The translations under genes were made by a program, and so were the position numbers. The notes beneath the pieces are model-generated. The model was given only the letters and a program-made list of their open reading frames with translations, was not told where the DNA came from and did not search any database. Below, piece after piece: positions 705-47,859 of a DNA stretch of 64,000 bases. How positions within the stretch are numbered: position 1 is the first letter of the stretch; the number at the start of each line of letters is the position of its first letter. The DNA comes from a virus (lineage: Duplodnaviria > Heunggongvirae > Uroviricota > Caudoviricetes): the IMG/VR virus record IMGVR_UViG_3300027963_000050; one strand, given 5' to 3'.

Positions 705-1076
705 TTACCAAGTTCTACACGCCCAATATCTTGCCTTCCATCTTGGTCCCGGATTATCACAATTCATTCTTGCTCTAAAAGATTTTCTTCTAGCAGGATT
801 ATTTTTCTTAATGGTCATTCTTTTTCCGTGAGCAGATTTTCCACCAAAACCAAAGTTAACCTTAACAACTTTACCTTTGTCGTTCTTAACATACACTTTA
901 GATTTTTTAACATCCCCTTGCATAATTTTACCAAGTTGAACTTTACGTCCCTGATATTCTGCTTCATTTATTAAGTCACCAACAACAAAGTCGGTCTCTT
1001 CAACTGAACCGTAAAAACTATCGTCTAATTCGTTGAATATTCTATTGTACTGTGATTCTGTAATTATTATTTTCAT
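705..1076 (-). CDS. leader-family-1 protein (MKIIITESQ...), basic C-terminus
   Basis: ORF with the conserved N-terminal MKIIITES leader. The C-terminus is K/R-rich. Confidence 0.6.
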   Translation of the reverse strand: MKIIITESQYNRIFNELDDSFYGSVEETDFVVGDLINEAEYQGRKVQLGKIMQGDVKKSKVYVKNDKGKVVKVNFGFGGKSAHGKRMTIKKNNPARRKSFRARMNCDNPGPRWKARYWACRTW

Positions 1077-1663
1077 TTCTTTTTATAACTTGTCATTGTT
1101 GGTTTATTTCCTGTTCCCACTTTTGGGTCTTTTCTTTCTGCTGTTCTTTTTTGTTGTGTCATCGCCTTCTTCTCACCTTTATCGTATGATGATGCAACCT
1201 TTGGTGTTTCAGATGAAACTTTTTTTGATGGACGACATTTTGGGTAAGCTCTTCCGTCAGCATCCTTTCTTCCACAAGGTGGATGTTTCCCATCAACTTT
1301 TCTACTTACGTCAACCCATTTCTCCTTAAACCAATTACGTAAATCTTCATTTACATTCTTTGGTTTAATTCCTTTTTTTTTCATATTGATGGCAATGGCC
1401 GCTTGTTGAGCCGGACTTGACGCTTCGTTAGTTTCCTCAGATTCGTTAGCCGATTTTTTTTTAACCGTTCTCCATCCACCTCCGTGTTCTTTATACCACT
1501 TTGATGCGAATCCGTTAGCGTAAGCACTTGGATAGACCTTGTACTTAGATTTAGCCGCAGCCTTAGCTCTTGACCATAACTCCGGATTGGTAGGTTTGTT
1601 CTTACCTTCGGTTAAATAGTCCTTCAATAATTGTTCTTGTCTTTCTGTAATTATTAATTTCAT
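1073..1663 (-). CDS. leader-family-1 protein (MKLIITERQ...), Lys-rich basic protein
   Basis: Track ORF 1073..1744. The internal Met at 1661-1663 gives the MKLIITE leader and a TAA-A-ATG junction with 1665..2720. The protein is about 25% Lys; possible DNA-binding or internal head protein. Confidence 0.55.
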   Translation of the reverse strand: MKLIITERQEQLLKDYLTEGKNKPTNPELWSRAKAAAKSKYKVYPSAYANGFASKWYKEHGGGWRTVKKKSANESEETNEASSPAQQAAIAINMKKKGIKPKNVNEDLRNWFKEKWVDVSRKVDGKHPPCGRKDADGRAYPKCRPSKKVSSETPKVASSYDKGEKKAMTQQKRTAERKDPKVGTGNKPTMTSYKKK

Positions 1664-1664
1664 A

Positions 1665-2720
1665 TTATTTATAAATTTTTGATGGTTTAGTATGATGAAT
1701 AACTTCCCGACCATTACTTGATTGGATAACATCGTAATTCTCATTCTTAAACATAATGAACATATTACCTTTATTATAGAGAATATAATTCAAATTTGGT
1801 TTATCTTTATACATATTTTTCATTCCGTAAGTATGTACCACAATATCTCCATTATCTAATTTTTCAGTTTTAGTTACCGGTTTTACTTGAATATTAAAAG
1901 GTTTTTTGCCTTCAATTTTTATTGTAATGTCGGTGGCATCATATCTATCTTTTTTATGTCCCGGAGGGTATGTCGTATATTCAAATTGATATCCTTCTTC
2001 CGTTAACATTTTAACCAAATTCTTTAACGCTTCATCTTCATTTTCAAACCCACTTTTTATTGAGTTCCACTGTATATCCAATAACTTTTTTAAAAATGTT
2101 TTATCATTCTTAAAAACATCCGATAACCATTCAATTTTATCATCACCACCTTCTAACTTCCATCTATGGTTAATTAAATTCTTAACCTCATTTTTTGTAT
2201 CAAAAAAATTCATAATAGACCAATCAATATCATTACCAAGTCTTTCCCCAATAGTATGGATGTTTCTTAATCCGGATGTAAAGTCTTCATCTTCCGGTAC
2301 CCAATAATCAATAAAGGCCAACTTCAAAGAGTCATTAATTTCTTTAGCATTAAAATCTTCTTTAGAAAAACTTGGTTTATCAATTTTTAATAACGGCAAT
2401 AATTTATTATAAACATTTTGACTTAAATCTCTACCAAAAACAAATGGAGATTTTCCGTCAGAACGAACAAAATCTTTATGGAACGCAAACTCACCAAGAG
2501 GACCGTCAAATGTTACTTCAGAACCTTCGTGGTTTTTAACATATTCACTTTGATTAAAAATAGGTCCATTAAAATATATAACACCAATCTCTTCCGGTCT
2601 ATTCTTATCCGGAAGAACACCAATACTCTTATAGTGATATTCAGGTGAAAGAACATTAAAGTCTTTTACCTTCTTAACTTCTGAGATATTGTATTTAGAT
2701 TCTATATTTTCTATATTCAT
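1665..2720 (-). CDS. hypothetical protein (351 aa)
   Basis: Long ORF, tightly packed. No recognisable motif. Confidence 0.55.
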   Translation of the reverse strand: MNIENIESKYNISEVKKVKDFNVLSPEYHYKSIGVLPDKNRPEEIGVIYFNGPIFNQSEYVKNHEGSEVTFDGPLGEFAFHKDFVRSDGKSPFVFGRDLSQNVYNKLLPLLKIDKPSFSKEDFNAKEINDSLKLAFIDYWVPEDEDFTSGLRNIHTIGERLGNDIDWSIMNFFDTKNEVKNLINHRWKLEGGDDKIEWLSDVFKNDKTFLKKLLDIQWNSIKSGFENEDEALKNLVKMLTEEGYQFEYTTYPPGHKKDRYDATDITIKIEGKKPFNIQVKPVTKTEKLDNGDIVVHTYGMKNMYKDKPNLNYILYNKGNMFIMFKNENYDVIQSSNGREVIHHTKPSKIYK

Positions 2721-2760
2721 TACTATAAATATATTGATTTATAGATTAATTAACTAAAAT

Positions 2761-2790
2761 AAAAAACCCCCAATTAAGGGGGTTAAATTT
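2761..2790. terminator. intrinsic terminator hairpin (AAAAAACCCCC-aatta-GGGGGTT + T/A tracts)
   Basis: Perfect 5-7 bp GC stem flanked by an A-tract and a T-tract, directly downstream of the stop of 2790..3167. Confidence 0.7.
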
Positions 2791-3167: not shown

Positions 3168-3212
3168 AGTATAGTTTTAATATAAATATGCTCTAACTAC
3201 AAAAAAAAGGAA

Positions 3213-4092: not shown

Positions 4093-4119
4093 ATAACTTT
4101 TTTTCACAAAGATACAAAT

Positions 4120-4157
4120 AAAAAACCCCACAATCAAGTGGGGTTATATTTTTTTAA
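4120..4157. terminator. intrinsic terminator hairpin (CCCCAC-aatcaa-GTGGGG)
   Basis: A-tract, 6 bp GC stem, T-tract. Lies downstream of 4154..4459. Confidence 0.65.
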
Positions 4158-4459
4158 GATTGAATGAATTTAATCTCAACACCGTATTGATATTCAAACC
4201 AATCTTTAATAAATGGTCCGGCATCATCTTCATTGGGAAAATAAACTTTAGCAAAGTTGTCTAAGAAACTCTTATCAATATATAATCTACCATCGTCAGA
4301 GTCATACTCCATCATAATATCACTATCATAATCATCGTCGTGACCATTAGGGTAATAAATAATGATAAAGTTATCATAATCAGATGCACTACCGATAGAA
4401 CGATTTAAGTATTGAAGTTGAAGGTCCCGGAGTTTATTCTCTGTAATTATTATTTTCAT
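4154..4459 (-). CDS. leader-family-1 protein (MKIIITENK...), highly acidic
   Basis: MKIIITEN leader. Asp-rich (DDDYDSD). Confidence 0.6.
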   Translation of the reverse strand: MKIIITENKLRDLQLQYLNRSIGSASDYDNFIIIYYPNGHDDDYDSDIMMEYDSDDGRLYIDKSFLDNFAKVYFPNEDDAGPFIKDWFEYQYGVEIKFIQS

Positions 4460-4464
4460 ATTAG

Positions 4465-4794
4465 TTATTCCGACACAATTATTTCATTTAATATAATAGA
4501 CATATTTGGCAACCAATTTTCCAACCCATATTCAATGGATGAGATTACATTATAATAATCATCCCGGTCATAATCCCCATTTTGATAAATATTAACATAA
4601 ACTTTAATACCCGAATCTGAATCAATTCTATCAACCTCAATACGATTGATGGAATCAATCTCATACAATTCATCCATCTCACCCAAACCCCAATCTTCTG
4701 ACTCCTCTCTAAGATTATTTAATTCAGAGTTAATTTGAGATTGGATATGAGTTTTTAACTTTTCTATTTTATTTTCTGTGACTATAAACTTCAT
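4465..4794 (-). CDS. leader-family-1 protein (MKFIVTENK...), acidic
   Basis: Track ORF 4465..4818 begins at a TTG. The ATG at 4792-4794 gives the MKFIVTEN leader. Confidence 0.55.
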   Translation of the reverse strand: MKFIVTENKIEKLKTHIQSQINSELNNLREESEDWGLGEMDELYEIDSINRIEVDRIDSDSGIKVYVNIYQNGDYDRDDYYNVISSIEYGLENWLPNMSIILNEIIVSE

Positions 4795-4814
4795 ACAAAT
4801 AAATATCAACCATT

Positions 4815-5480: not shown

Positions 5481-6500
5481 TTACGTCGGGTCCGTCAATA
5501 AGATACAAATTACCTTGCAACTATACTTCTTCTTTCCCGTACTCTTATGATTATACACATATTCCACAACGCGGGGGGAATCAAAATTAATATCTTTAAT
5601 TTTATCCTCAATACCTTCCAAATCATAGTTCCCATCAATGTTAATCACAAACACTCTTGGAACATTAGAAAACCTTGCCTCATCCCCATACATCATAAGA
5701 TACTTACATACCTCATACGGGTCATTAATGGAAGACTCCCTCCAATTATCACCATAATCCCTCTTATACTCATTAGTGGTACTCTTGGAAACCTTTTGGT
5801 CAAACCCCTCCCCATTAATAAAGAAATCAAGACCCTTCTTCTTACCAAAGGTGGGGATAATATCAATATTACTGTTGAACATCAAATACTCAATGTAGTC
5901 ATTTTTCAACGTACTAAAAATTTTTAAATAACAATACTGTTTGGTATCGACAGTGTGTTTTTTATACGAAGATTCAAATAACTCAGGATTATAAACAGAT
6001 GGAAAAGTAACAGTTCTTGTTACGTAAGAATCATAGTTATTGGCAACATACGGATACTCATATTCTAAATACCCATCATTACGATACATCTCTTGGTAAA
6101 CCTTGAATACCTGCTTAGCGTTCCGACAATTCTTATACTTGTCACTCAATACATACATATCTCTCAATACATCCCGACAACTTATATATTCCCAATGATT
6201 AACAATGTAATCTGTAACATCCCCAATCTTTGAAATGTCCAAAACCTCATCACCCTTACGGTTTTTCTTAACCGGAACATTCCACTTATCCTTCATAAGT
6301 CTTAAGAATTCCAACCCCCTGTTTAAGTTACCAAGTATAGACTTAACCTGTTCCCTCTCTATTCCATTCATTATATTCATATCATAAAGATAACACATTC
6401 CCCCTTTACAATCAATTTTTTTCCAGAAAATTTTTTCATATCTCATATTCCGATATACGATATGAACCCATCCGGAAATTTTCCGGATTACTATAAACAA
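5481..6500 (-). CDS. hypothetical protein (339 aa)
   Basis: Long ORF. No recognisable motif. Confidence 0.5.
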   Translation of the reverse strand: MFIVIRKISGWVHIVYRNMRYEKIFWKKIDCKGGMCYLYDMNIMNGIEREQVKSILGNLNRGLEFLRLMKDKWNVPVKKNRKGDEVLDISKIGDVTDYIVNHWEYISCRDVLRDMYVLSDKYKNCRNAKQVFKVYQEMYRNDGYLEYEYPYVANNYDSYVTRTVTFPSVYNPELFESSYKKHTVDTKQYCYLKIFSTLKNDYIEYLMFNSNIDIIPTFGKKKGLDFFINGEGFDQKVSKSTTNEYKRDYGDNWRESSINDPYEVCKYLMMYGDEARFSNVPRVFVINIDGNYDLEGIEDKIKDINFDSPRVVEYVYNHKSTGKKKYSCKVICILLTDPT

Positions 6501-6511
6501 TTTCCGGATAT

Positions 6512-6543
6512 AAAAAAACCCCTCCGTTGAAGAGGGGTCTTAA
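6512..6543. terminator. intrinsic terminator hairpin (CCCCTC-cgttgaa-GAGGGG)
   Basis: A-tract, GC stem, T-rich tail, downstream of 6544..6816. Confidence 0.65.
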
Positions 6544-6816
6544 TTATATATGTGAGTGGTCTAATCCGTACTTTGAATGAAGTAACTTCTTACCTTTTCT
6601 TTTTAGATGATTAAGTGATTCATCATCACCTTCACAATATCTTATTATAATGGTATCGTCATCATCAATATCTACGTGACCATTCATTTTATTCTCATCA
6701 CATTCCACCGATTGTATATCGTAAGAAATATCTTCGTCTGAATCATTTTCAGTTATCAATGGTTTAACATTACCCAATGTCGATTCCAATAATTGTTTAA
6801 ATCTATTAACTATCAT
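6544..6816 (-). CDS. small highly acidic protein (90 aa)
   Basis: ORF rich in D/E (DDDDTIIIRYCEGDDE). Confidence 0.45.
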   Translation of the reverse strand: MIVNRFKQLLESTLGNVKPLITENDSDEDISYDIQSVECDENKMNGHVDIDDDDTIIIRYCEGDDESLNHLKRKGKKLLHSKYGLDHSHI

Positions 6817-6969
6817 AATATTGTTTTATATATAAATATACACAACCCCACAAATGGGGGAAATTTTTTCCCAAAAATTTTTTTAGAATTTTCTGAACAA
6901 TTTACCCATAAAGTTTTTTTTAGACATACACATTGCAAAAGGGATTATCCCCCTATATGACACACAGAA

Positions 6970-7085
6970 CCCGGAGGGGAGGGAGGGGGGATACGTCCCC
7001 CACGTACAGGGGAGGGGTATAGGGGGTTATTATGGGGAGGGGTGACAAAAAAACCCCCCTGTAAAAGATGGGGGGAGAGGGTGTA
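6970..7085 (+). repeat. G-run tract (GGGG/GGGGGG x about 9) with embedded CCCCCC-N10-GGGGGG hairpin/terminator (7045-7078)
   Basis: Sequence cccggaggggagggaggggggatacgtcccccacgtacaggggaggggtatagggggttattatggggaggggtgac... in an otherwise 30% GC context. The hairpin lies downstream of the 7153..7614 stop. Confidence 0.6.
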
Positions 7086-7152
7086 TATTTAATATATCCA
7101 AATGATATAGGGAAAAGTTATCAACCTGACAGGGTGACAGTTGTTAATAACT

Positions 7153-7614
7153 TTATTTGGTTGTGGATATAAAGTTATCAACAGTTAATCTACGTGGGGT
7201 CTTCTGAGGTGGGTCCCCATCTTTGGCTAAGATTGATTTAAAGTCGTATGTTGTTTTCATATCTTGGGGGATGTGTTCGTATAGTTCCTCAAGGGTCTTC
7301 TCTAACTTCCTTCTTAGGTCAAACATAGTTGAGTCTTCTTGAGGGTATTCAAAGTAACCACCTAAGGCATAAGTCTTTGTATCTCTTTCATCAGGTTGGG
7401 GTTCAAGTAGTACCCTCTTCCAATAGGGGTTCATTCTTAGTCCGGAGTAATCTGATAGTTCAAAGAAGTTAACATATACATCTATCCCCGTCATTGTGTT
7501 ATACTTATTCCAATCCTTAGTTAGGGACCATCCTTTAACGAAGGGGTATTTCTTTGATAATGCTTTGACTGAGATGTCTATCCCTCTATGTTCTTTATTA
7601 GATAATTGTTCCAT
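7153..7614 (-). CDS. hypothetical protein (153 aa), GC-richer than neighbours
   Basis: ORF. Its codon composition is noticeably more GC-rich than surrounding genes. Confidence 0.45.
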   Translation of the reverse strand: MEQLSNKEHRGIDISVKALSKKYPFVKGWSLTKDWNKYNTMTGIDVYVNFFELSDYSGLRMNPYWKRVLLEPQPDERDTKTYALGGYFEYPQEDSTMFDLRRKLEKTLEELYEHIPQDMKTTYDFKSILAKDGDPPQKTPRRLTVDNFISTTK

Positions 7615-7642
7615 AGTAATAAATATATTGAAAATAAATTAA

Positions 7643-7692
7643 ATAATCCCCCTTTTTGTTTGGTGGTTAAATTTATTATTCGTACCTTTGTA
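7643..7692 (+). promoter_or_regulatory. Bacteroidetes-type promoter 1: AATCCCCC upstream element, TTTG(-33), 20 nt, TAccTTTG(-7)
   Basis: aataatccccctttttgtttggtggttaaatttattattcgTAccTTTGta. Confidence 0.5.
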
Positions 7693-7840
7693 TCACTGAA
7701 TTGGTAACCAACCCAACAGGGGGCGTACCGAGTGGTGGAAGAGTAGACTCCAACCTGCTTTATATTTTTTATATAAATCCCCCATCTTTACTGAGAATCT
7801 CATAATCAACCCTACGTGGTTTTGAAAAAATAGTGTAATG

Positions 7841-7886
7841 AATCCCCCCTTTTGTTGTGAATGTCATAATTTATTTATATCTTTGT
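7841..7886 (+). promoter_or_regulatory. Bacteroidetes-type promoter 2 (duplicate of promoter 1 architecture): AATCCCCCC, TTTG, 20 nt, TAtcTTTG
   Basis: aatccccccTTTTGttgtgaatgtcataatttatTTATAtcTTTGtac. Same element order as 7643..7692. Confidence 0.5.
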
Positions 7887-7930
7887 ACTTTGACGGTGGT
7901 TATCACCGGTAACTCTTAATATCTTAAACT

Positions 7931-8101
7931 ATGATTATTCTTATTGTACTACTATGTCTGTCCTTTGTCCTGTTATGTTTTGGTTTCATTCAGGTATTTG
8001 TTATCCCCACTCTATCACCTGATAGTAAGTTACTTAAGTGGTGGGAGAAACATATGGTTATGGAAGACCCCTATGACAGAGGTCCGAGATAAATTCCTCT
8101 A
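7931..8101 (+). CDS. possible small hydrophobic peptide (56 aa, MIILIVLLCLSFVLLCFGFIQVFVIPTLSPD...)
   Basis: ATG about 45 nt downstream of promoter 2. Predicted N-terminal TM helix. Below the ORF-track size cut-off. Overlaps the 3' end of the minus ORF 8058..8396. Confidence 0.25.
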
Positions 8102-8396
8102 CCTTCTTTAGGGAATGGTTTCTAATGTTCATTGACATATCGGTTAAATCATTCTCTGATAGTGGGGAGTCCATATGAATCTTCTCTATGATATCCCCCA
8201 TATCTACATTGGTTAGTAATAACACTTCCTGCTTTATTCTATTCCCGGACTTGAATAGTTCATATTCACAGGTACCCGAGAAGTTCCCATAGGAATAAAT
8301 CACACTATATTGTGTGTCATTTTGTCTTACTTCCGTATTAAAATCATTTAGGTACATAATTGTTGATAACTTTTTTATAAATATAGTTATTAACAT
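8058..8396 (-). CDS. hypothetical protein (112 aa)
   Basis: ORF in a gene-poor region. Confidence 0.35.
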   Translation of the reverse strand: MLITIFIKKLSTIMYLNDFNTEVRQNDTQYSVIYSYGNFSGTCEYELFKSGNRIKQEVLLLTNVDMGDIIEKIHMDSPLSENDLTDMSMNIRNHSLKKVEEFISDLCHRGLP

Positions 8397-9446: not shown

Positions 9447-9464
9447 TATGATATTTATATTGAT

Positions 9465-9734
9465 ATGAAAATGATTATAAGTGAAAGTAGAATGTATAAT
9501 GTGTTTGTGAAATATATTGATTCACAATATGACTTATCATACAATATTAAAACCCGAGAATTTATAGATAAAAATAATAATATCTTTGGATATGTTGGGG
9601 GAGGAGTATTTTATTATGGTGGTTTATCTACGGAATTAAACTTGGAAGGGTTCTTTGGTAATAAAACAAATAAGATGTTAAAAATTTATTTGAGAGATAA
9701 ATTTCCTGATACACCTATATACTCTATTGAATAA
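9465..9734 (+). CDS. leader-family-1 tandem array member 1 (MKMIISESR...)
   Basis: Track ORF 9444..9734 starts at a TTG inside the promoter box. The ATG at 9465 gives the MKMIISES leader. Confidence 0.6.
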   Translation: MKMIISESRMYNVFVKYIDSQYDLSYNIKTREFIDKNNNIFGYVGGGVFYYGGLSTELNLEGFFGNKTNKMLKIYLRDKFPDTPIYSIE

Positions 9735-9746
9735 TCCCCACGCTTT

Positions 9747-10094
9747 ATGAAATTGATTATAACTGAAAGTAGAAGAAATGATGTCGTAACCAAATGGTTG
9801 GATAGGAAGTATAGTAATTTAATACCAAGACAATATAGTGTATTTACCTCATTTGATGATGAATCAGGTAATAGTGTGTTTTCATATAGTTACGGAGATA
9901 TTACAATTGTAAGTCCTGACCTACAATACGATTTATTTAATATGTTTAACTTAAAAAGATATGACTTAAATCAAATCATTAAACCTTGGGTTGAACAAAC
10001 ATATGGTATAGATGTTGATTTGGTTCAGTACACTACTTGGCATTGTAATAACTGTGGTATGTATCATCCTACTAAACATCATATTATAGAATAA
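9747..10094 (+). CDS. leader-family-1 tandem array member 2 (MKLIITESRRNDVVTKWLD...)
   Basis: Preceded by the conserved junction TAATCCCCACGCTTTATG. Paralog of 10107..10421 (shared VVTKWLD). Confidence 0.65.
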   Translation: MKLIITESRRNDVVTKWLDRKYSNLIPRQYSVFTSFDDESGNSVFSYSYGDITIVSPDLQYDLFNMFNLKRYDLNQIIKPWVEQTYGIDVDLVQYTTWHCNNCGMYHPTKHHIIE

Positions 10095-10106
10095 TCCCCA
10101 CGCCTT

Positions 10107-10421
10107 ATGAAATTAATAATAACTGAAAATAAAATGAGTAGTGTTGTAACCAAATGGTTGGATAATAGCTATGGTGATTTAAGAAAGTCCGCATCTCCTA
10201 TGAATTTTAGATTCATCCACTACAAAGATAAAAATAATCAGACCGTCTTTTTGTTTAATCGTGACACCGGTACAGTTACCATAACTAATAAATCGGTATA
10301 CCATTATTTGAAAGATATGTTTGGTCTTAGTGGTTATGAGTTAAATGTTATCTTAATCCCTTGGTTTATAGAAAGATATAATCTACACGTTGAGAAAGTC
10401 CAATATAGTGACTTACATTAA
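10107..10421 (+). CDS. leader-family-1 tandem array member 3 (MKLIITENKMSSVVTKWLD...)
   Basis: Junction TAATCCCCACGCCTTATG. Confidence 0.65.
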   Translation: MKLIITENKMSSVVTKWLDNSYGDLRKSASPMNFRFIHYKDKNNQTVFLFNRDTGTVTITNKSVYHYLKDMFGLSGYELNVILIPWFIERYNLHVEKVQYSDLH

Positions 10422-10436
10422 TCCCCACGCCTTATT

Positions 10437-10739
10437 ATGAAACTAATTATTACAGAGAGTAAATTTTATAAGATGTTCGCCAAGTTTATGGACGACTATT
10501 TCGGTTTAACATATAAGGCCGTTAAGAAAAAATATTATGATGTTGACGCAATTGAATATATCTTTACAACCAAAGATGGTGATACGTTTGGTAGGTCATT
10601 TGAAAATGATACTTTCACGTATAGTTATGATAAGTATATTATAATTGATTCTTTCTTTGGTGATAAAACAGATGAACTATTATTACAATACCTTAATGAT
10701 AAATTTGGAGATTCTGTTAGAATTAGAAGAATATCTTAA
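10437..10739 (+). CDS. leader-family-1 tandem array member 4 (MKLIITESKFYKMF...)
   Basis: Junction TAATCCCCACGCCTTATTATG. Confidence 0.65.
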   Translation: MKLIITESKFYKMFAKFMDDYFGLTYKAVKKKYYDVDAIEYIFTTKDGDTFGRSFENDTFTYSYDKYIIIDSFFGDKTDELLLQYLNDKFGDSVRIRRIS

Positions 10740-10752
10740 TCCCCCACGCTTT

Positions 10753-11187
10753 ATGAAAGTAATTATAACTGAAAGTAGAATAGAAGAAATAATACAAAAA
10801 TCCTTATCCATCGTATTTGGTGGGTTTGAGGATATAACTTGGAGTTGGGCCGACTTTAATTGTGGTTGGGGTGTTTGTTGTGATATATATGCCGTTGGAT
10901 TTGTTTTACCTAATACTGACCACGATGAATATATCTTTAAGTTGGCTGATGGTAAACACTATGATGATGATGGAGATTACCCGGAAGAAATGAAAGGTGA
11001 ACTACCTGAAGAATGTTATAACCAACCTGATTTATATGACCCCCGATTTGATACAATCGTATTCTATGAAGAGTATGCTGAGAAATTGGAAAACTTCTTG
11101 GGTCCGTTAGATAAAGTTAAAACCCCATTGTTAAATGTCCTAAATGAAATGTTTGGTATGGATGCTAAGGTAATTATTGTTATATAA
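10753..11187 (+). CDS. leader-family-1 tandem array member 5 (MKVIITESRIEE...)
   Basis: Track ORF 10645..11187. The ATG at 10753 follows the conserved junction TAATCCCCCACGCTTTATG and gives the leader. Confidence 0.65.
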   Translation: MKVIITESRIEEIIQKSLSIVFGGFEDITWSWADFNCGWGVCCDIYAVGFVLPNTDHDEYIFKLADGKHYDDDGDYPEEMKGELPEECYNQPDLYDPRFDTIVFYEEYAEKLENFLGPLDKVKTPLLNVLNEMFGMDAKVIIVI

Positions 11188-11689: not shown

Positions 11690-12109
11690 TTACTTATTGA
11701 TTAATATCTCAACCAATTCATCAAGTATTTGTCCCGGTAAACTTTCATATTTAACATAATAGTCGCCTAAGTGACCATTAAACTCATCCTCATATCTACT
11801 AATATCTACACTCGTTAGACCTAACCATTCTATTTGATGTTCCTCCCCATCTTCATCACTATAATGAAGTGGTTCTTCATCTATTTCTGTCATACCAAAC
11901 CCACTAGCATCACCTAATTCTCTCACTCTTTCTTTAATGTAGTTGACCTTATCAATCTCCTTTAAGTAGGGCTCAATCATATAATAATTTCCCGCCAATT
12001 TAATGGCGTTGGAGACTCCCATCTTATCAATCATTGTTCTGATGGTGTCTTCCTTTTTATCTTCACTGATTAAGGTGCTAATTCTTTGTATGTTTTCTAT
12101 TAGGTTCAT
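11690..12109 (-). CDS. leader-family-2 protein (MNLIENIQRISTLI...)
   Basis: N-terminal MNLxENIxRI leader with the 'ggttcat' start context. Acidic. Confidence 0.55.
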   Translation of the reverse strand: MNLIENIQRISTLISEDKKEDTIRTMIDKMGVSNAIKLAGNYYMIEPYLKEIDKVNYIKERVRELGDASGFGMTEIDEEPLHYSDEDGEEHQIEWLGLTSVDISRYEDEFNGHLGDYYVKYESLPGQILDELVEILINK

Positions 12110-12859
12110 TTATAATAATTCTATAATATCTTTAACAATATCGGTTTTATCTCTCCTGTCACCTTTATCATCGTAAACACTTATAATATGTTTGGCAATA
12201 TCTTTGTTTTTAACATCTTCTTCTTTAGATAATGGGACGTACTTATTCCAATCATTCTCCATATCTAATCCACCCCAACCTTTCATTTCTTCAGTGTCAG
12301 GTAAATCTTCTTTATCAAATTTACCACCCTCACCTTGTCTCATTCTTTGTAACTTACCAATAAGCTCAGTTTCTTTTTCTTTTGTATGTTTGTGGTTCCC
12401 ACTTTGTAACCCTTGAATGATTTGGTCCATAAACCCTGTCCATCTCTCTGTATTACCTTTTCTTAATAACTCCTCTGATTTATCAGAATCTTGAGACGGC
12501 ATTAATAAGAATACGTTAGGGTATTGACTTAATAATTCTTTCACTCCATCATTGTAAACGTGTCCCCCACCAAAATCTAATATTGATGGTGTATTGTATT
12601 TATTAAAGTCCGGTGATAAAACATATTTTACCAACTCAAACTCTTTTCCATCACCATAACCAAACTTCTCTTGTAATTTGTCAAGTATTACATACTCAAC
12701 ACCAAGTTGTTTTGATAGTTCTTCAGCAACGGTTGATTTTCCTACTGTTGGTGGTCCAATTAAGATGATTCTATTTGTTCCGGAATAACCTTTTTGTTCT
12801 TCCTCAACAAGTAATCCCATCATTTCTTTGATTCTATGTATATTCTCGTGTAAGTTCAT
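12110..12859 (-). CDS. leader-family-2 protein with P-loop NTPase / nucleotide-kinase-like domain
   Basis: Track ORF 12110..12937. The internal Met at 12857-12859 (MNLHENIHRIKEMMGL) gives a TAA-N-ATG junction. Walker A motif LIGPPTVGKST. Confidence 0.55.
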   Translation of the reverse strand: MNLHENIHRIKEMMGLLVEEEQKGYSGTNRIILIGPPTVGKSTVAEELSKQLGVEYVILDKLQEKFGYGDGKEFELVKYVLSPDFNKYNTPSILDFGGGHVYNDGVKELLSQYPNVFLLMPSQDSDKSEELLRKGNTERWTGFMDQIIQGLQSGNHKHTKEKETELIGKLQRMRQGEGGKFDKEDLPDTEEMKGWGGLDMENDWNKYVPLSKEEDVKNKDIAKHIISVYDDKGDRRDKTDIVKDIIELL

Positions 12860-12860
12860 A

Positions 12861-13631: not shown

Positions 13632-13632
13632 A

Positions 13633-14529: not shown

Positions 14530-14560
14530 AGTAATAAATATCTCGTTCTTTGACATATTG

Positions 14561-22831: not shown

Positions 22832-22833
22832 AA

Positions 22834-24799: not shown

Positions 24800-24820
24800 A
24801 ATATATAAATATCCGGTAAA

Positions 24821-29513: not shown

Positions 29514-29822
29514 TTACAAGAAATGATAATCCAAATACATAACCTCTAAATTGTAGTGTTCTTCAATCCATCTCTCCATTATGTTCTGAATTTGTTTATA
29601 ATTCATACTAAAAAAAGATGATAAAAATGACCATATTTCATCATAATTGATAAAAACATCACCACTTTTTTTATTGTATTCAAATATAACCTGTTTCCCT
29701 TTTTTATATAGAATAAAATTAGGTCTGTCTTCCGTTTCATACGGTTCCAAATCACCAAAGTTATCGCTCAACCAATTAATGACAGCTCTCTCTAATTTAC
29801 TTTCTGTTATTATAATTTTCAT
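29514..29822 (-). CDS. leader-family-1 protein (MKIIITESKLERAV...)
   Basis: Internal Met at 29820-29822. TAA-N-ATG junction with 29824..30534. Confidence 0.55.
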   Translation of the reverse strand: MKIIITESKLERAVINWLSDNFGDLEPYETEDRPNFILYKKGKQVIFEYNKKSGDVFINYDEIWSFLSSFFSMNYKQIQNIMERWIEEHYNLEVMYLDYHFL

Positions 29823-36669: not shown

Positions 36670-37709
36670 TATATGTAATCAGGTAAAAACTCATTTATAT
36701 ATTTATCCACTAAACGACTATCAGGGTAATCCGGTATTCTAAAATCAAGATAAGATTCATCACCGTTTTCCATTAAAGTATTCATCATTCCTATCCACGT
36801 ACCAACACTGTCAATATTATAATCATAATACCCCCAATTATTTTTTTCCGCAACATATTTGCGAATAGAGTCAACAACCTCATTTGGGTTAAATTTAATA
36901 TAGTACACCTCTGTAAGTTTTTCAGGATTACCATATAACGCAACAGACTCCCATTTAGCACTTTTCATATCAAAGAATGTTTCCAATTCACTAGTAACAT
37001 CATTATATACTTCCGTTTCATACGCACTATTATAAGCGTTTGAATGAATACCATATAAGTCACCTGACAAATCATCTAAATAATCATTATCAATTAAATA
37101 CATAAACGATTCCTCATCACCAATCACATTACCAACGTTTTCAGGTGTTAGATAAAAAATACCTTCATCATCAGCATAGTTATTAAACAAATCCGGACTA
37201 TCATCATCAACCTCAATTTTCCAATTGGTTAATCTATCTAAAATATATTTTTTTAATAGTTCCATATTTTCCGGATTAAGTTCTTCAATAACATCTCTAT
37301 AGATATCATCTGTTGTATTACCCCATCTTTCAAACATATCATTATCTTCCCCTAACACCGCTCTTGCAACATCTCTAGCTGTAGTGTCACGACCACCACC
37401 ATAAAATAAATCAGCTAAGTCCTCTCTATCTCTAAGCCTTAAATAAAAGATACCATCTTTAGGTATTACATCAGATAGTTGTGCAATACATTTTTCTAAT
37501 ATTTCCTTATCATTAGCAATGTTTAACGAGTAATTTAATATCTCTATTTGATAATCACCTAAATTATTATCAAATGGGTCAATATAGTCCAATAAATCTT
37601 TTTTATGGAAAAATCTTAATATGTTTTCCACAGTTTCAAAATATGGTAATAATTCATCTATATCACCATTATTAAAGGCATTTACGTATTTTAAGTATTT
37701 CTCGTTCAT
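36669..37709 (-). CDS. acidic hypothetical protein (346 aa)
   Basis: ORF. TAATG / ATGA overlaps with both neighbours. Confidence 0.5.
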   Translation of the reverse strand: MNEKYLKYVNAFNNGDIDELLPYFETVENILRFFHKKDLLDYIDPFDNNLGDYQIEILNYSLNIANDKEILEKCIAQLSDVIPKDGIFYLRLRDREDLADLFYGGGRDTTARDVARAVLGEDNDMFERWGNTTDDIYRDVIEELNPENMELLKKYILDRLTNWKIEVDDDSPDLFNNYADDEGIFYLTPENVGNVIGDEESFMYLIDNDYLDDLSGDLYGIHSNAYNSAYETEVYNDVTSELETFFDMKSAKWESVALYGNPEKLTEVYYIKFNPNEVVDSIRKYVAEKNNWGYYDYNIDSVGTWIGMMNTLMENGDESYLDFRIPDYPDSRLVDKYINEFLPDYI

Positions 37710-38227
37710 ATCTTAGTTTGACTTGTATAATCAGGTCTAAAGAATATTACTTTAATACCTGTTTTTGATGTTATGTTCTCTTTGAAATAATCATTGATTC
37801 CCCAATTTACCTCATCACTTACTTCCCAACCGTAATCATCATTGTTTAGAGCATCATCTAAACTCATATGGTCACCACCTATATCAACACTACCAGCTAA
37901 ATCATCAACCTTAACTTTAACGGTAACAAATGGTGCATCATCATTTAATCCCCATTTCTTAATATCGGTCACCTCAAAGAAAAAATTGTAAGCGCCAAAA
38001 TTATTTATGTGGTGACGATTTATAAGTAATAAGTTTTTAGCAAGGTCTTTTGATTGTTCCTCACCTCTCCATTCAATTAAGTATTTGTAGGCTTGGTCAT
38101 AGGTAATCTCTTTATTACCATCCAAACCAAATAGAGAAATAAAAGACTTATCTACACTACCACCATTTTTATCCCAATATCGGAATAAAATGTTTTTGTA
38201 ATGAGATTCTGTAATGATTATTTTCAT
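37706..38227 (-). CDS. leader-family-1 protein (MKIIITESHYKN...)
   Basis: Leader. Confidence 0.6.
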   Translation of the reverse strand: MKIIITESHYKNILFRYWDKNGGSVDKSFISLFGLDGNKEITYDQAYKYLIEWRGEEQSKDLAKNLLLINRHHINNFGAYNFFFEVTDIKKWGLNDDAPFVTVKVKVDDLAGSVDIGGDHMSLDDALNNDDYGWEVSDEVNWGINDYFKENITSKTGIKVIFFRPDYTSQTKI

Positions 38228-38277
38228 TTATTATTTCGTTTCTTAAATTATAATTATAAATAGTTAAAACTATAGAA

Positions 38278-41392: not shown

Positions 41393-41427
41393 AAAAAAAA
41401 GGAACTAAATGTTCCTCTTTTTTTTAA
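41393..41427. terminator. intrinsic terminator hairpin (A8-AGGAAC-taaat-GTTCCT-T8)
   Basis: Between 40597..41343 and 41424..42344. Confidence 0.6.
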
Positions 41428-42344
41428 TTTGTTAATTCTATCACCGTGTTACCATCCGTTAAGTATTTTGGGTAAGTCCTCAGTATGTCTTGTTTAATTG
41501 TTTTCATAATGTTTTCCACTAGTTCAGGGTTGTCTTTGAAGTTGGAATCCGGAATCATTTTTCTATCAACCATTTTACCTGCTTTAAGAATTTTAACATA
41601 TAGTTTAATCTTACCGTCAACCTCTTCAACATCGTTAATCATAAAATTAACTCTGTGAGCATTTTCCCCCCAACCACCACTAATTAATTTTGATTGGTTA
41701 GTTACACTATCTTTATTCCCAACAAAGTTTGTAACTCTATCCGTATTAACTCTTTCAAGATTATAACGACCATCCATAAGACGTTCTATTTCACCCTTAG
41801 TTACACCAATAACATCTGAGTTTAAGTTTGAATCAAATTTAACAGGGTTGACTTGACTCATTTGTTTTATTGTTGAACTAGAATAAGTATCTAAAGTTCT
41901 ATACCATTGATTATTAATGAACAAGAATACTGGATACCAACCATACGATTTAATCACATAGTACCAATCATTATTATTATTCACATCCCATTGTCCTTCA
42001 ACATTTGAACCTTTGAACGGCATTCTAGCTGAAGCGTATTCATAAGCAGAATTGTTTGCAACTTTCTTTTGTTTGAATTGTTTAAAATCCTTAAAGTTTT
42101 CTTTGGTTATATTTTCGTAATCACCTTCCGGTCTGAAATTGGCGGTATAAACTTCATAATAAAAATTTGACTGATTAGACGATAAACCAAGAACCGGCAA
42201 CATAGACTTAAGAAATTTTAACATTTCCGGTTTAGTCTTAGTCTCCTTTTTATGTTTATCAATATACTTGAATAACATAATTTCCTTTTTAGTTAAAGGT
42301 CCTTCTTGTTCTTCTCGTAATATACGTCTAATTAATTCTTCCAT
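41424..42344 (-). CDS. leader-family-3 protein (MEELIRRILREEQ...), 306 aa
   Basis: N-terminal leader variant of MKDLIKxILREE. Confidence 0.5.
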   Translation of the reverse strand: MEELIRRILREEQEGPLTKKEIMLFKYIDKHKKETKTKPEMLKFLKSMLPVLGLSSNQSNFYYEVYTANFRPEGDYENITKENFKDFKQFKQKKVANNSAYEYASARMPFKGSNVEGQWDVNNNNDWYYVIKSYGWYPVFLFINNQWYRTLDTYSSSTIKQMSQVNPVKFDSNLNSDVIGVTKGEIERLMDGRYNLERVNTDRVTNFVGNKDSVTNQSKLISGGWGENAHRVNFMINDVEEVDGKIKLYVKILKAGKMVDRKMIPDSNFKDNPELVENIMKTIKQDILRTYPKYLTDGNTVIELTN

Positions 42345-42811: not shown

Positions 42812-43141
42812 TTATTTTCCTATTATAAGGTCGCTATAACCTAGTTTATTCATTCCCCCAACTTCTTCGTCATTATTTTTTTTAAATTCATCATACATAA
42901 ATGATTTAACAACTGATGAAATACTTTGTTCTGCTTGAGCGATTTTACTTTCCATCCAATCTTCTAATTGGTCATCACCGTCATCTTCCATTTTTTCCCA
43001 CATAGCTTGAGTCATTTTAGCAATGAGAAATAATTGTTGTTTTGCCATATATGAACCTTTTTGGTGGTCAGTTTCCGTAATGGTTTTCATTTTGGTAACC
43101 AACTTTTCAAGTTGTTTCTCTGTTAATATAATTTCTTTCAT
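42812..43141 (-). CDS. leader-family-1-like protein (MKEIILTEKQ...)
   Basis: Internal Met at 43139-43141. Confidence 0.45.
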   Translation of the reverse strand: MKEIILTEKQLEKLVTKMKTITETDHQKGSYMAKQQLFLIAKMTQAMWEKMEDDGDDQLEDWMESKIAQAEQSISSVVKSFMYDEFKKNNDEEVGGMNKLGYSDLIIGK

Positions 43142-43171
43142 ATTCAGTTTATTTATAAATATCATAGAAAG

Positions 43172-44621: not shown

Positions 44622-44632
44622 TTTATATTTTT

Positions 44633-44998
44633 TTGTGTATTTATATGTATATGGAATTAAGTATAAACAAAAATAAATTCAAAGTCAAAACTGTTATATC
44701 ATCCAAAGACACTAGTCAAGGAATGATGAACAAAAAATTTGATAATACCTTTAATGGTATGTTATTTATTATGTCCGAAGGACAACACTGTTTTTGGATG
44801 AAGAATTGTATAACACCATTGGATATTATTATGATTGAAGATGATATTATAACAAAAATTCACCACAACTGTCCCCCTTGTAAAACCAAAGATTGTAGAA
44901 ATTATTGTGGTGAAGGTGATATGATACTTGAACTTCAAGGTGGTACCTGTAAAGAATTAGGTATTAAGTCCGGAGACAAAATTGTTCATTACGATTGA
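44633..44998 (+). CDS. DUF192-like small protein
   Basis: FNGMLFI ... HCFWMKNCITPLDIIMIEDD pattern typical of DUF192 (COG1430). Weak. Confidence 0.35.
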   Translation: MCIYMYMELSINKNKFKVKTVISSKDTSQGMMNKKFDNTFNGMLFIMSEGQHCFWMKNCITPLDIIMIEDDIITKIHHNCPPCKTKDCRNYCGEGDMILELQGGTCKELGIKSGDKIVHYD

Positions 44999-46392
44999 TT
45001 TATCTTCTCCTGTAATAATTTTACAAACTCATTCTGAATCATTTTAGTAAACTTAACTGAAGGAGAATCTTCCGCCTCATTATATCTACTACTACCTTTT
45101 GGTGGTCTTTTTCCTCTACCTAAGTAACTTAATCCTGAAATATTTGTAATACATTTGTGACCCCCACTATTTGCTTGAATGAAATCCCAAACATTCACAT
45201 TAATATTATCCAACATTTGTCTATGTTCTTCAGGTAATTCTGAAAAAGGTTTTTCCATCATTTCACCAATGTGGATTAACTTCTCTTTACCATCTTCCAT
45301 TGTTTTAAATTCTTTACCATATAACGCAACAAAATCCTTAAATGTAAACCCAATTGATTCCGCATTAAAATCTTTTGAAGTTTCCGATACCCATTTAATA
45401 GTTGAAAGAGGTATTTCACGTTGTTTTAATTGGTCCTCCCATTTAGACAATACCTCTTGAGCTATCTCACCTAAATTAACACCTTTTAACTCTCGTTCTT
45501 TTTTGAAAGGATTACAAGATGCCTGAACTAATCCTAATGGCCAAGCAATAACTAAAAAGTCAGCTTCAGGATTATTTTTAAATGGTGTATATCTATCATA
45601 AGAACCTGGCTTAAACATTGACCCACCACCGTATTGAACGATAATATTACCTAATACTTTAACATTAGGACTGTCTTGCATTGATTTAACATACTCATCT
45701 TTATTTACTTCAAGTTGTTCCGGTTTTGCATAACCTTTTTCAACCATTATTGATTTAATAGTATTAAGAATATTCAATAACGATGGTGTACATTTCATTA
45801 CCAAAGTTTCTAAGAAACCTGGTTTATTTTTAAATGCCAATAATAGTTTGTTAACAACTAAACCCATTAACATTTTATTTTTTTCTAATGATTTTTCTTT
45901 ATCTACATTGAATAAATAAGATATAACTTGGTCCACACTAATTTCATTCATAGCGTAATTTGCCGAGTCAACCGTTGAAATAAGTAAGATATCTGAAGAT
46001 GGAAATATATCTTTAGGAGATACAACTTGAGAAATTGTTTCAACATTTGAACGAGAACTTCTAAATGAAGTTGATTTAGTATCCTCAGCACCGGCTTGTC
46101 TATCGTGGTGGTCTGTATGAATCACAAACATTGGTTTTCCGTGAGCAAAATCCACTAAGACAGGCATCACGTCCCCTTTGGCATCATTCTTCTTTACAGC
46201 GAATTCTTTATCACCATATTGGATGATATGAGCATCAATTACATCAATACCGTTATTTTTAAGATACTCTTTCATCGCAATTGCTGTCGTAACACCATCT
46301 AAATCTTGGTGAAAATATATTTCAGCCTTAGGATATCTTTTAGCGAGAGCGTTAATATCTCTTAAACCACTTTCATTTATTAATTTTTTCAT
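44989..46392 (-). CDS. DHH/DHHA1-family phosphoesterase (NrnA/RecJ-like)
   Basis: Motifs in order: DLDG (I), VDFAH (II), HTDHHD (III), ..SGGHK.. (DHHA1 GGH). Confidence 0.6.
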   Translation of the reverse strand: MKKLINESGLRDINALAKRYPKAEIYFHQDLDGVTTAIAMKEYLKNNGIDVIDAHIIQYGDKEFAVKKNDAKGDVMPVLVDFAHGKPMFVIHTDHHDRQAGAEDTKSTSFRSSRSNVETISQVVSPKDIFPSSDILLISTVDSANYAMNEISVDQVISYLFNVDKEKSLEKNKMLMGLVVNKLLLAFKNKPGFLETLVMKCTPSLLNILNTIKSIMVEKGYAKPEQLEVNKDEYVKSMQDSPNVKVLGNIIVQYGGGSMFKPGSYDRYTPFKNNPEADFLVIAWPLGLVQASCNPFKKERELKGVNLGEIAQEVLSKWEDQLKQREIPLSTIKWVSETSKDFNAESIGFTFKDFVALYGKEFKTMEDGKEKLIHIGEMMEKPFSELPEEHRQMLDNINVNVWDFIQANSGGHKCITNISGLSYLGRGKRPPKGSSRYNEAEDSPSVKFTKMIQNEFVKLLQEKINQS

Positions 46393-46394
46393 AA

Positions 46395-47498
46395 TTATAT
46401 TGCCGCCTTTACCGCAGTCCCAAACATACTTTTAAGTGCGTCTCCAATAAAGTCACCACCAGTTGATGCAACAGGTGCGGCAGGTGCCGATGTTACAGGA
46501 GCAACTGTCGTTGGTTGTCCATTAATAATACCACCAAAATCTTCCGCCCAAGATTTTTGACCTTCAGGTGTTTGATTAAATTGATTAACTTTTTCTTCTA
46601 AATCACTGTATTTTTGCATCAATTCATCCGGACCAACAAAATTCGCAACACCTAAAAAATCTAATAACCTTAAATACCATTTAGTTCTACCCATTAAAGA
46701 ACGTGTTGCTCTGTTACCAAACAATCTTGGAACACCTCCACGAACTTTTGACATAAATGATGCGTTCGCCAAACCTTTATTATCTCTGAATCCTCTAAAC
46801 GCAGTATCTTTTTCTATTTGTTTTATTAATCGTTTTTTTTCAAGTGAAGATAATGTTTTCCCTTCTAATTTCGCCAACTCAATTGAACGAGTACCCATTT
46901 TTGCTCCGGCACTTTTAAAAATTTGAATATATTCTTCAATAACTTTAACTAACCCTCTACCTAAAAATGGTACTCTACCAATTAACGCTTTTAACATATT
47001 AAGTAATTTAGTCCCCCAACTTGGTGCACTAGAAACCATTTTGGCAATAGGACCTCCCGCAGCTTTAGCCGTTTCCGCAATCTTAGCTGCATCACCAGCA
47101 ACGGCCGCTGCTTTAAACGCTTTAGTACTTGCCCCACCCTTTTTCATCACACCTATCGCCGTTTTACCAATTGCGTCACCAATAATTGGAACTGCGGATA
47201 TTAAAGATAAAATAGCAAATAACTTATCCCCTTGTCTCCAATAACTAATACCATTAACAACATCAACAATACCTGTTGGGTCAAAAATACCAACAAGGTC
47301 ACCCAATGTATTATACCATTTAGCTTCTTTAAGAAGTTTTGATTTTTCAGGATAAGCCGAACGTAAGAACTCAACAACAAAAATTCTATCTTCTTTAGAT
47401 AATGTATCCCATTTTTCTTGAAGTATTTTTTCCTGTTCTTCTTTATATATTTGAAGAATATGTTCTTTTAATTCTGATTCTGTTATAGTTTTTTTCAT
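46395..47498 (-). CDS. leader-family-1 protein (MKKTITESELKE...), Ala-rich 367 aa
   Basis: Leader variant. Central A/G/K-rich low-complexity region (AAVAGDAAKIAETAKAAGG). Confidence 0.5.
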   Translation of the reverse strand: MKKTITESELKEHILQIYKEEQEKILQEKWDTLSKEDRIFVVEFLRSAYPEKSKLLKEAKWYNTLGDLVGIFDPTGIVDVVNGISYWRQGDKLFAILSLISAVPIIGDAIGKTAIGVMKKGGASTKAFKAAAVAGDAAKIAETAKAAGGPIAKMVSSAPSWGTKLLNMLKALIGRVPFLGRGLVKVIEEYIQIFKSAGAKMGTRSIELAKLEGKTLSSLEKKRLIKQIEKDTAFRGFRDNKGLANASFMSKVRGGVPRLFGNRATRSLMGRTKWYLRLLDFLGVANFVGPDELMQKYSDLEEKVNQFNQTPEGQKSWAEDFGGIINGQPTTVAPVTSAPAAPVASTGGDFIGDALKSMFGTAVKAAI

Positions 47499-47499
47499 A

Positions 47500-47859
47500 T
47501 TAATCCCAGCTTAAGAAAAATTTAATTTGATTATCTTCACATCTTAATTTTCCGGCACCCCATCCATTAATCCCTTTAAACTCAATCGCCTCACCAAGTT
47601 TCATCGTAACTTTATCAGTTAAACGAATCGCAGAACCAGTCTTAACAACAATTCCACCAACTGTGGGAGCACCTTTAACAGCAATTACCTGTAAAGCGTT
47701 TGTTTTAGGTAATCCATAATCAGGATTTTTTTTAATAGCATTTAATAATGTATCAGTAAAACTATTTGCCCCACCCATCATTTCATCTTCGTTAATTAAA
47801 TTATATCTTGAACGGATATCGTTTCTTTCTTCTTCGGAAATTATAAATCTTTTTGCCAT
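47500..47859 (-). CDS. hypothetical protein (MAKRFIISEEERND...; leader-1-like)
   Basis: Internal Met at 47857-47859. Confidence 0.45.
   Translation of the reverse strand: MAKRFIISEEERNDIRSRYNLINEDEMMGGANSFTDTLLNAIKKNPDYGLPKTNALQVIAVKGAPTVGGIVVKTGSAIRLTDKVTMKLGEAIEFKGINGWGAGKLRCEDNQIKFFLSWD

Follow-up and report, generated by a model that had tools for sequence, protein, structure and literature searches.

A conserved, interchangeable N-terminal tag on many small proteins of an uncultured jumbo phage as a candidate capsid-targeting propeptide

The 64,000-nucleotide stretch of DNA analysed here (the window; IMG/VR virus record IMGVR_UViG_3300027963_000050) is part of an uncultured jumbo myovirus of the T4 superfamily, and about a quarter of its genes, 26-35 of ~105 open reading frames (ORFs), begin with a short peptide tag, mostly of the form MKIIITE. 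We consider it slightly better than an even bet (roughly 55%) that this tag acts as a capsid-targeting propeptide that the prohead protease cleaves away, in other words a counterpart of the capsid-targeting sequence (CTS) of phage T4, a proposal made by analogy. According to this proposal, the tagged proteins would be made late, alongside the head proteins, the tag would dock them onto the prohead scaffolding core, and a Peptidase_S77 prohead protease would trim the tag after its invariant Glu (I-T-E, followed by S/N), so that the mature proteins could remain in the head with the DNA and then be injected into the host. The concept is known from T4, while the tag sequence, its interchangeable leader classes and the scale of its use are new.

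The strict pattern MK[ILV][IV]ITE was matched 10 times in the six-frame translation of the window, against a mean of 0.005 in 200 shuffles, and amino-acid composition would predict only ~8e-5 matches across the 105 N-termini. A looser pattern, [ILVMF][ILV][ILV][TS]E, had 17 matches among ORFs of 60 aa or more, and 16 of these 17 occurrences sit 2-4 residues past the initiating Met, indicating that the motif is specific to N-termini. The original prediction, which was made from the letters of the window, listed 18 genes with this leader, and all of them are present at the exact coordinates and start as claimed. These class-1 genes, 18 in the window, follow the consensus MKIIITE(S/N)Q(Y/L)xxL, with the Glu invariant in 18/18 leaders of a set collected without requiring it. 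Two further classes had been missed, namely class 2 (MNLxENIxRI[KR]xxM...Phi-Phi-x-E, Phi being hydrophobic; five genes) and class 3 (M[KE][DE]LI[KR]xILREE; three genes). Both likewise end in Phi-Phi-x-E, which is common to every leader class, and degenerate variants begin about nine more genes. The window has 32% G+C and is dense with short genes, among which the tagged ones are as follows.

705-1076 (-), leader gene of 123 aa, MKIIITESQYNRIF; its cargo is a very widespread basic domain, phrog_7595
1073-1663 (-), leader gene of 196 aa, MKLIITERQEQLL, with a DUF5872 cargo
4154-4459 (-), leader gene of 101 aa, MKIIITENKLRD, of the small paralog family
4465-4794 (-), leader gene of 109 aa, MKFIVTENKIEK, heading a run, with TATTTATT upstream
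9465-11187 (+), five tandem leader genes of the small paralog family (9465-9734, 9747-10094, 10107-10421, 10437-10739 and 10753-11187)
11690-14529 (-), four tandem class-2 genes (13633-14529, 12861-13631, 12110-12859, which is P-loop kinase-like, and 11690-12109)
19385-19780 (-), class-2 leader gene of 131 aa, MNLYENIDRIKSIMDEG
22496-23850 (-), four tandem class-1 genes (23527-23850, 23204-23527, 22834-23223 and 22496-22831)
23850-24799 (-), class-3 genes 24458-24799 and 23850-24458 (MKDLIK[KQ]ILREE), heading the run in which the four class-1 genes follow
29514-29822 (-), leader gene of 102 aa, MKIIITESKLER, of the small paralog family
37706-38227 (-), leader gene of 173 aa, MKIIITESHYKN
41424-42344 (-), class-3 leader gene of 306 aa, MEELIRRILREEQ
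42812-43141 (-), leader gene of 109 aa, MKEIILTEKQLEKL, in which TITE occurs a second time (residues 21-24)
44989-46392 (-), DHH phosphoesterase with the degenerate leader MKKLINESG
46395-47498 (-), leader gene of 367 aa, MKKTITESELKE, with an Ala-rich cargo
47500-47859 (-), variant leader gene of 119 aa, MAKRFIISEEERNDIRSRYNLINED

What is conserved in these leaders is the peptide and not the DNA. In the ten strict leaders, codon positions 1 and 2 have an identity of 0.92 versus 0.60 at position 3, synonymous codons are mixed (ATA, ATT and ATC for Ile; ACA and ACT for Thr; TCA, TCT and AGT for Ser8, which is thus drawn from both the TCN and AGY families), and the 30 nt upstream are 34% identical, which equals the background. 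The drift at position 3, the two Ser codon families and the background identity upstream together indicate that selection acts on the peptide. A shared 5' translation-initiation cassette, which had been offered as the alternative to packaging, therefore does not hold, since neither third codon positions nor upstream DNA are conserved; a DNA-level cassette, whether a mobile regulatory one or one for translation initiation, was rejected for the same lack of nucleotide-level conservation upstream and at synonymous sites. The sole conserved upstream DNA is TAATCCCCACGCYTT, found before the last four genes of the plus-strand array, where it is intergenic at 9732-9746, 10092-10106, 10419-10436 and 10738-10752 (+), directly before the array genes. 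C-rich runs lie upstream of 4794 and 9465.

The cargos had also been described as unrelated and completely divergent, which is right for eight of the 18 genes and wrong for the others. With the first 12 residues stripped, 9-10 of the 18 were still linked by BLASTP as one diverged family of ~100 aa (9465, 9747, 10107, 10437, 22496, 22834, 23527, 29514 and 4154, with 10753 weakly linked), which aligns full-length and has a common C-terminal motif, W-x3-(Y/F)-x-Phi-x-V; apparent tandem duplication explains the leader-gene arrays. No mutual similarity was detected beyond residue 12 among 705, 1073, 4465, 23204, 37706, 42812, 46395 and 47500, and most cargos of the 18 had no match in Pfam or PHROGs. 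Recent gene duplication, or a 5' cassette spread by recombination or serving translation initiation in an AT-rich host without Shine-Dalgarno sequences, would suit the paralogs, several of them tandem, the presence of TAATCCCCACGCYTT upstream of four array genes and the A/U-rich codons of the leader. As an explanation of the tag this is nevertheless very improbable, because it would have to cover the other eight genes and >100 IMG/VR proteins with unrelated cargo (lysozyme, DHH, M23, LysM, Pterin_4a), it conflicts with the 60% versus 92% codon-position identities, the two Ser codon families and the 34% upstream identity, and near-identical cargos occur under quite different leader sequences. 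An AlphaFold2 model of a small-family member (10107-10421, from a 29-sequence alignment) had a mean predicted local distance difference test score (pLDDT) of 91, with residues 1-10 averaging 63 and modelled as the free start of a helix of residues 2-22, outside the beta-sheet. Foldseek of this model against the PDB gave no match at E <= 0.001, and a model of 705-1076 (pLDDT 42) was not used. The motif W-x3-(Y/F)-x-Phi-x-V also ends 335-703 (-) and 23850-24458 (-), proteins with other N-terminal leaders and longer middles, so that the C-terminal element of the small family may be modular too.

The tag extends well beyond this genome. A degenerate DNA pattern for MK-x-IITE, searched in IMG/VR, had matches on at least 120 stretches, nearly all of 28-35% G+C and many with 2-4 matches, and low-GC viral contigs encode hundreds of different proteins with the tag. 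For 211 distinct leaders the logo is M K(0.96) I I I(0.92) T(0.88) E [S/N/E] Q(0.68) [Y/L/F] x x [L/I], in which Glu7 is fixed by the search pattern, and its information ends at position 13; outside the tag, 110 non-redundant tagged IMG/VR proteins show 5% mean column identity. Tagged proteins matched the Pfam families Phage_lysozyme (7), Phage_L5_gp82 (6), LysM (4), Hydrolase_2, PG_binding_1, Peptidase_M23, Pterin_4a and DHH, and the lysozyme, LysM, Hydrolase_2, peptidoglycan-binding and M23 types would fit injected or virion proteins. In the leader loci examined, the tag was never seen on neck, sheath, baseplate, helicase, methyltransferase or thioredoxin families. Homologs of 37706-38227 with the leader are present in IMG/VR, one of them on a 308-kb contig that also carries the neck gene of this lineage. 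The 635-735-kb 'huge phages' that share the DHH gene had no leaders in 50-kb samples, indicating that the tag is not a feature of those phages, and full-text searches of the literature for the motif strings returned no paper.

Leader classes behave as interchangeable modules, as the same cargo is found under different leaders, with classes 2 and 3 taking the place of MKIIITE in orthologs elsewhere. Relatives have the cargo of 705-1076 (residues 23-123) at 80-93% identity, while the N-terminal 15-45 residues of the protein alternate among at least five leader types, including MKIIITESQYN, MSKNIIxLTESDIQRIVL, MENLKFIIREAL and MKLSELKQLIQQVIMED. Orthologs of 24458-24799 and of the DHH enzyme exchange or drop the leader: the former (MKDLIKQILREES) has a cargo 70-79% identical to relatives' proteins starting MKIIITEEQLKKIK, and DHH orthologs elsewhere begin MKIIITESQFRMMIKESG where the window protein has MKKLINESG. 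Cargo homologs also occur without the leader in cultured Pelagibacter and Roseobacter phages, including the T4-like pelagiphages HTVC008M and C48C1. Leader-like sequences lacking the Met are found at domain junctions of fusion proteins, e.g. ...KVIAVSEEQFERLFE..., and in many relatives 1073-1663 and 705-1076 form a single fused gene with a leader-like linker between the two parts. A relative's ART-PolyVal-like protein (30.7 bits, just under the Pfam cutoff of 31.2) has an internal MNKIKITEEQYSKL junction. In locus L339 of a relative, the DUF5872 protein is fused to the 705-1076 cargo and adjoins the capsid gene.

Head genes of the T4 type were found in close relatives, which carry Peptidase_S77, Portal_T4, scaffold and Gp23; head genes were observed in relatives only. 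L339, with proteins 77-80% identical to those of the window, has Peptidase_S77 (1.7e-21), Gp23 (9e-73) and Portal_T4 (9e-78), and the leader locus L034/L216 has a Gp23-family capsid protein, Portal_T4 and Peptidase_S77, its capsid protein having Gp23 homologs of 62-65% identity on 250-384-kb contigs of a sister lineage (L221 and kin). The window phage presumably shares the head machinery of these relatives. A first search for head genes beside the neck gene met DNA polymerase and glycosyltransferases instead. Two groups are close relatives, L302-L312, in which the tail tube is 73-76% identical to that of the window lineage and the 24458-24799 homolog 70-79% identical, and L326, L327, L339 and L346, whose proteins are 69-80% identical to 705-1076 and 12861-13631.

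Gene order in these relatives places leader genes within or next to the head module. In L306/L044 the order is protease, a 52-aa gene, MKKIKLTEADL, MKIIITEEQLKKIK, an 81-aa gene, scaffold and capsid gene, and in L037 the protease is followed by the leader genes MTLTKDVLKRIIKEE, MKIIITETKLRN and MEKNKIIIESQLRN. L339 has four leader genes directly past the capsid gene and before the baseplate genes, encoding DUF5872, Pterin_4a, a flavodoxin-like protein of class 2 and, judged by inspection, a protein similar to 42812-43141. The product of 42812-43141 is, by inspection, also like proteins adjoining the protease or capsid gene in relatives, with a 35% tblastn match in L037 as the sole scored match, and a homolog of 12861-13631 (69-80% identical) adjoins the capsid gene in relatives. 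Other Gp23-type lineages have leaders of their own: five MIKLK[KE]LLxE genes lie between the protease homolog and a scaffold-like gene in L286 (~6004-8366; also in L285), an array of six MKLTKSKLKEIIREELLNE genes in L299 and MNIRKIIKEE leaders in L246 are in or beside the head module, and the cultured phage immuto (L301) has FL[TVK]E leaders (M.NF.L..FL.ENKLT), among them two FL[TV]ENKLT proteins and a 75-aa protein (MENNFD...FLKE, then S) whose gene lies between those for protease and scaffold. Lineage-specific leaders at head modules look like a general feature of Gp23-type phages, one of which we found no earlier description. Lineage-specific leaders on small-gene arrays also include MKKSELKAIILE (listed for L285/L286, L299, L246, L282 and L301).

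The end of the leader resembles a prohead protease site. In T4 the protease gp21 cleaves behind L/I-x-E, and the N-terminal 10 residues of IPIII are enough to direct a protein to the capsid (PMC9026906); the internal proteins of T-even phages are diverse, with only the CTS conserved (PMC3012670). The earlier view of the leader's I-T-E as an IxE site agrees with this rule, as the Glu is invariant and the P3 residue (Ile) is hydrophobic. In the alignment of capsid proteins, M-I-N-E is invariant and S/A-T-D comes next; the segment aligning with residue 25 of mature T4 gp23* follows 8 residues after M-I-N-E, which we take to be the probable maturation site of the capsid protein. With a slash for the expected cut, capsid propeptide sites in relatives are YLINE/A, FLINE/A and YMINE/S, protease N-termini are KLLTE/S (L216) and KLLTE/F (L037), and the L216 scaffold contains LITE/A and LITE/N; DITES and PITES occur in the L221 scaffold and KITES in an L221 core protein. 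Phi-[TN]-E is enriched in the scaffolds of L216 (6 versus 1.6 expected, p=0.005) and L221 (8 versus 1.6, p<0.001).

Alternatively, the tag might do no more than mark where the S77 protease or a paralog cuts, acting as a maturation or activation switch or as a polyprotein junction, with no targeting and most tagged proteins unpackaged. The Phi-Phi-x-E shared by all leader classes, the leader-like sequences at internal domain junctions and the requirement of the T4 protease for L/I-X-E alone would all agree with that, yet we regard it as improbable: a bare site needs neither an exact N-terminal place (16/17 in the window) nor a conserved M-K-I-I-I, the loss of 7 residues is unlikely to be an activation switch for ~30 unrelated folds, and S77 proteases are active inside proheads, so their substrates must be there. 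A second candidate processing enzyme, in the window lineage, is a protein of L136 (14393-15496, -), by inspection a papain-like (C1) cysteine peptidase, whose gene has TATTTATA upstream and lies near the neck and DNA polymerase genes.

Tagged genes also share an upstream motif with structural genes. For 25 of the 105 window genes, (GA)TATTTAT[AT] occurs on the sense strand and begins 11-13 or 20-25 nt (in one case 35 nt) upstream of the ATG, TATTTAT[AT] being found for example at 2724-2731, 4798-4807, 9450-9459, 14533-14542, 24804-24813, 38255-38262, 43154-43163 and 47875-47882. All 26 genes of classes 1-3 fall in 10 same-strand runs headed by TATTTAT[AT] / TATTTATA; 10 of 10 runs with leader genes are headed by the motif versus 14 of 33 without (Fisher p=0.001), and counted by gene, 26 of 26 tagged genes lie in motif-headed runs versus 39 of 70 (p=5e-6). 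In relatives the motif is upstream of terminase, portal, protease, scaffold, neck, tube and baseplate-like genes and was not found upstream of DNA polymerase or SNF2 helicase genes. TATTTAT[AT] could be a late promoter. The T4 late-promoter string TATAAATA on the sense strand proved not relevant, the recurring motif being the reverse complement, TATTTATA.

The likeness to T4 internal proteins, suggested in the original prediction, is sustained in part by the form of the tag, the IxE site, the S77, scaffold and Gp23 genes of relatives, the gene order and the upstream motif, and needs correcting in that about half of the genes are paralogs. Several points weigh against the proposal of capsid targeting. 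Peptidase_S77, scaffold and Gp23 were found neither in the 64-kb window nor in its flanks (~7 kb left, 4 kb right), and among 120 random leader loci 7 had T4-type head genes, which is about chance for random placement in a 300-kb genome. In the sister jumbo lineage (L221 and kin), which has the same protease and capsid protein and whose neck protein matches the one of the window lineage at 36-43% identity, no MKIIITE genes were seen in the 21-kb head loci. The enrichment of Phi-[TN]-E was absent in the L044 and L070 scaffolds, positions 8-13 (S/N, Q, Y/L, L), past the proposed cut, are also conserved, for which a recognition site on the P side alone is insufficient, and the late-promoter reading of TATTTATA derives from about a dozen genes. 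Some cargos resemble ordinary cytoplasmic enzymes, namely the pterin-4a carbinolamine dehydratase and the P-loop kinase-like protein (both by Pfam; the latter is of class 2), and the flavodoxin-like (also a class-2 cargo) and HAD-like cargos are enzyme-like by inspection only. The scale also has no precedent: 26-35 of ~105 ORFs in this window alone give far more tagged species than T4 has CTS proteins (a handful) or SPN3US has head proteins (~50). T4 holds ~1000 internal-protein molecules (PMC3012670) and SPN3US >40 MDa of ejection proteins with ~50 head protein species, a head capacity that would make such a scale conceivable. The best-scoring Gp23 loci (75-82% identical to the query) turned out to be those of the sister lineage that lacks MKIIITE genes.

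A rival reading makes the tag a general N-terminal module unrelated to the capsid, such as a docking peptide or degron for a chaperone or AAA+ protease of host or phage, or a helix-capping or solubility element on accessory proteins that work in the cytoplasm. Tagged proteins are very many and varied, metabolic-type enzymes included, conservation reaches position 13 and residues 2-22 form one continuous helix in the AlphaFold2 model, tagged genes are scattered through the genome, and the window has a DnaJ gene (59847-60770); moreover, Met-basic-PhiPhiPhi is presumably like a ClpX N-terminal recognition class. However, such a module would give no account of the invariant Glu and hydrophobic P3 across all leader classes, and would leave unexplained the match to the capsid, scaffold and protease sites, the leader genes between protease and scaffold genes in several lineages, and the upstream motif of structural genes. 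Leader-like sequences without Met also persist at fusion-protein junctions. On balance we find it unlikely, and prefer capsid targeting.

If the tag is indeed a counterpart of the T4 CTS, the two have in common a short N-terminal propeptide with an MK start and an (L/I)-x-E end, carried by diverse small proteins at variable loci, together with Peptidase_S77, scaffold and the Gp23 capsid protein (here in relatives) and a similar capsid-propeptide site. T4 also packages the ADP-ribosyltransferase Alt, and an ART-PolyVal-like protein is present in one relative here. The T4 CTS is MKTYQEFIAE (PMC8442874), with which the tag shares only M1, K2 and the terminal Phi-x-E, so that judged by sequence it could be either analogous to the T4 CTS or diverged from it beyond recognition. 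Moreover, the tag has 7 residues to the Glu instead of 10 and is conserved for 6 residues past it, several interchangeable leader classes coexist in one genome, and tens of tagged genes lie in 64 kb versus a handful in T4. Among the cargos here are enzymes and cell-wall hydrolases, and not all of them are basic.

The giant phages phiKZ, 201phi2-1 and SPN3US have ~50 head proteins, many of them paralogous, and a gp21-related protease; their N-terminal propeptides are cut after Glu, with multiple sites each, and gp53 and gp54, which are paralogs, start with the same 15 residues (PMC5694885, PMC9026906). Their cleavage motif is S/A/G-x-E (PMC5694885), whereas P3 is Ile, Leu or Val here. Propeptides of phiKZ and SPN3US are mostly >100 residues and not conserved between families, unlike the short, conserved tag reused on many families, and these phages form a separate lineage that has virion RNA polymerases. 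Comparison may also be made with the ART-PolyVal-like domain (below the Pfam cutoff) that precedes a leader-like junction and with the fusions joining two tagged cargos by a leader-like linker. Both recall the polyvalent proteins of Iyer et al. 2017, which are reportedly multi-domain effectors of phages and conjugative elements delivered with the DNA; the proteins here, in contrast, are mostly single small cargos, each with its own N-terminal tag, and not a giant multi-domain protein. Encapsulin cargo-loading peptides are likewise short, conserved terminal peptides, guiding diverse cargo into an HK97-fold shell, but they are usually C-terminal and not removed by a protease, whereas the tag here is N-terminal.

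Should capsid targeting prove right, the tag would offer a direct sequence rule for listing the head-carried, injected proteins of a large, environmentally abundant phage group. Such first-strike proteins act against host defences and usually go undetected unless proteomics is used. The CTS principle of T4 would then be widespread in the T4 superfamily, in several lineage-specific 'dialects' with tens of cargos per genome, and the tag could serve to package foreign proteins into Bacteroidota phages. More tentatively, an entire clade of uncultured T4-superfamily jumbo phages, abundant in fresh water and the sea, may load about a hundred proteins through interchangeable tags and inject them with the DNA, an idea that we think doubtful at this size. 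The cargo would in that case comprise cell-wall hydrolases, ADP-ribosyltransferases, phosphoesterases, paralogous host-interference proteins and metabolic enzymes, by far the largest injected phage proteome known, and the leader would be a sequence-readable label of injected effectors in uncultured phages. Even if it has another role, the tag's position-specific conservation across hundreds of unrelated proteins would still need explaining.

Regarding the phage itself, lipoprotein and Bacteroidota-type signal peptides read in the sequence point to a bacterial virus, the host phylum is probably Bacteroidota, and the source is freshwater-lake metagenomes. GenBank phages, including a megablast of 8 kb of the window, yielded no near relative, and in the capsid-protein search the nearest cultured phages were Flavobacterium phage immuto, Microcystis phage Mel-JY01 and Rhodothermus phage RM378. 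In IMG/VR, the neck protein is 73-100% identical in the best 80 of >600 stretches, on contigs up to 322 kb, and the leader loci have genes in common with the window, plus tail sheath, a baseplate wedge protein and a head-tail adaptor.

Four untagged minus-strand genes of the window, at 14561-16204, 17192-19120, 19800-20405 and 20433-22016 (-), probably encode fibres or decoration proteins. Two large proteins of this set match the 'virion structural protein' phrog_8510 and have a conserved C-terminal part in common, and the other two share the N-terminus MS[RK]ARPFAYNP, one of them with weak SPRY and fibrinogen-C matches. Unusual accessory genes are found at 49292-50404 (-), 59847-60770 (-), ~62394-62570 (-), 28754-29473 (-) and 34238-35056 (+), with products listed in this order as glutamine synthetase, a full DnaJ, a 58-aa Hc1 histone-like protein (a call from a Pfam mark in L212), an LpxH-like phosphoesterase (by inspection) and a CxxCxGxG-repeat protein, the CxxCxGxG units being zinc-finger repeats. 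In the related lineage L246, glutamine synthetase lies between the portal and protease genes.

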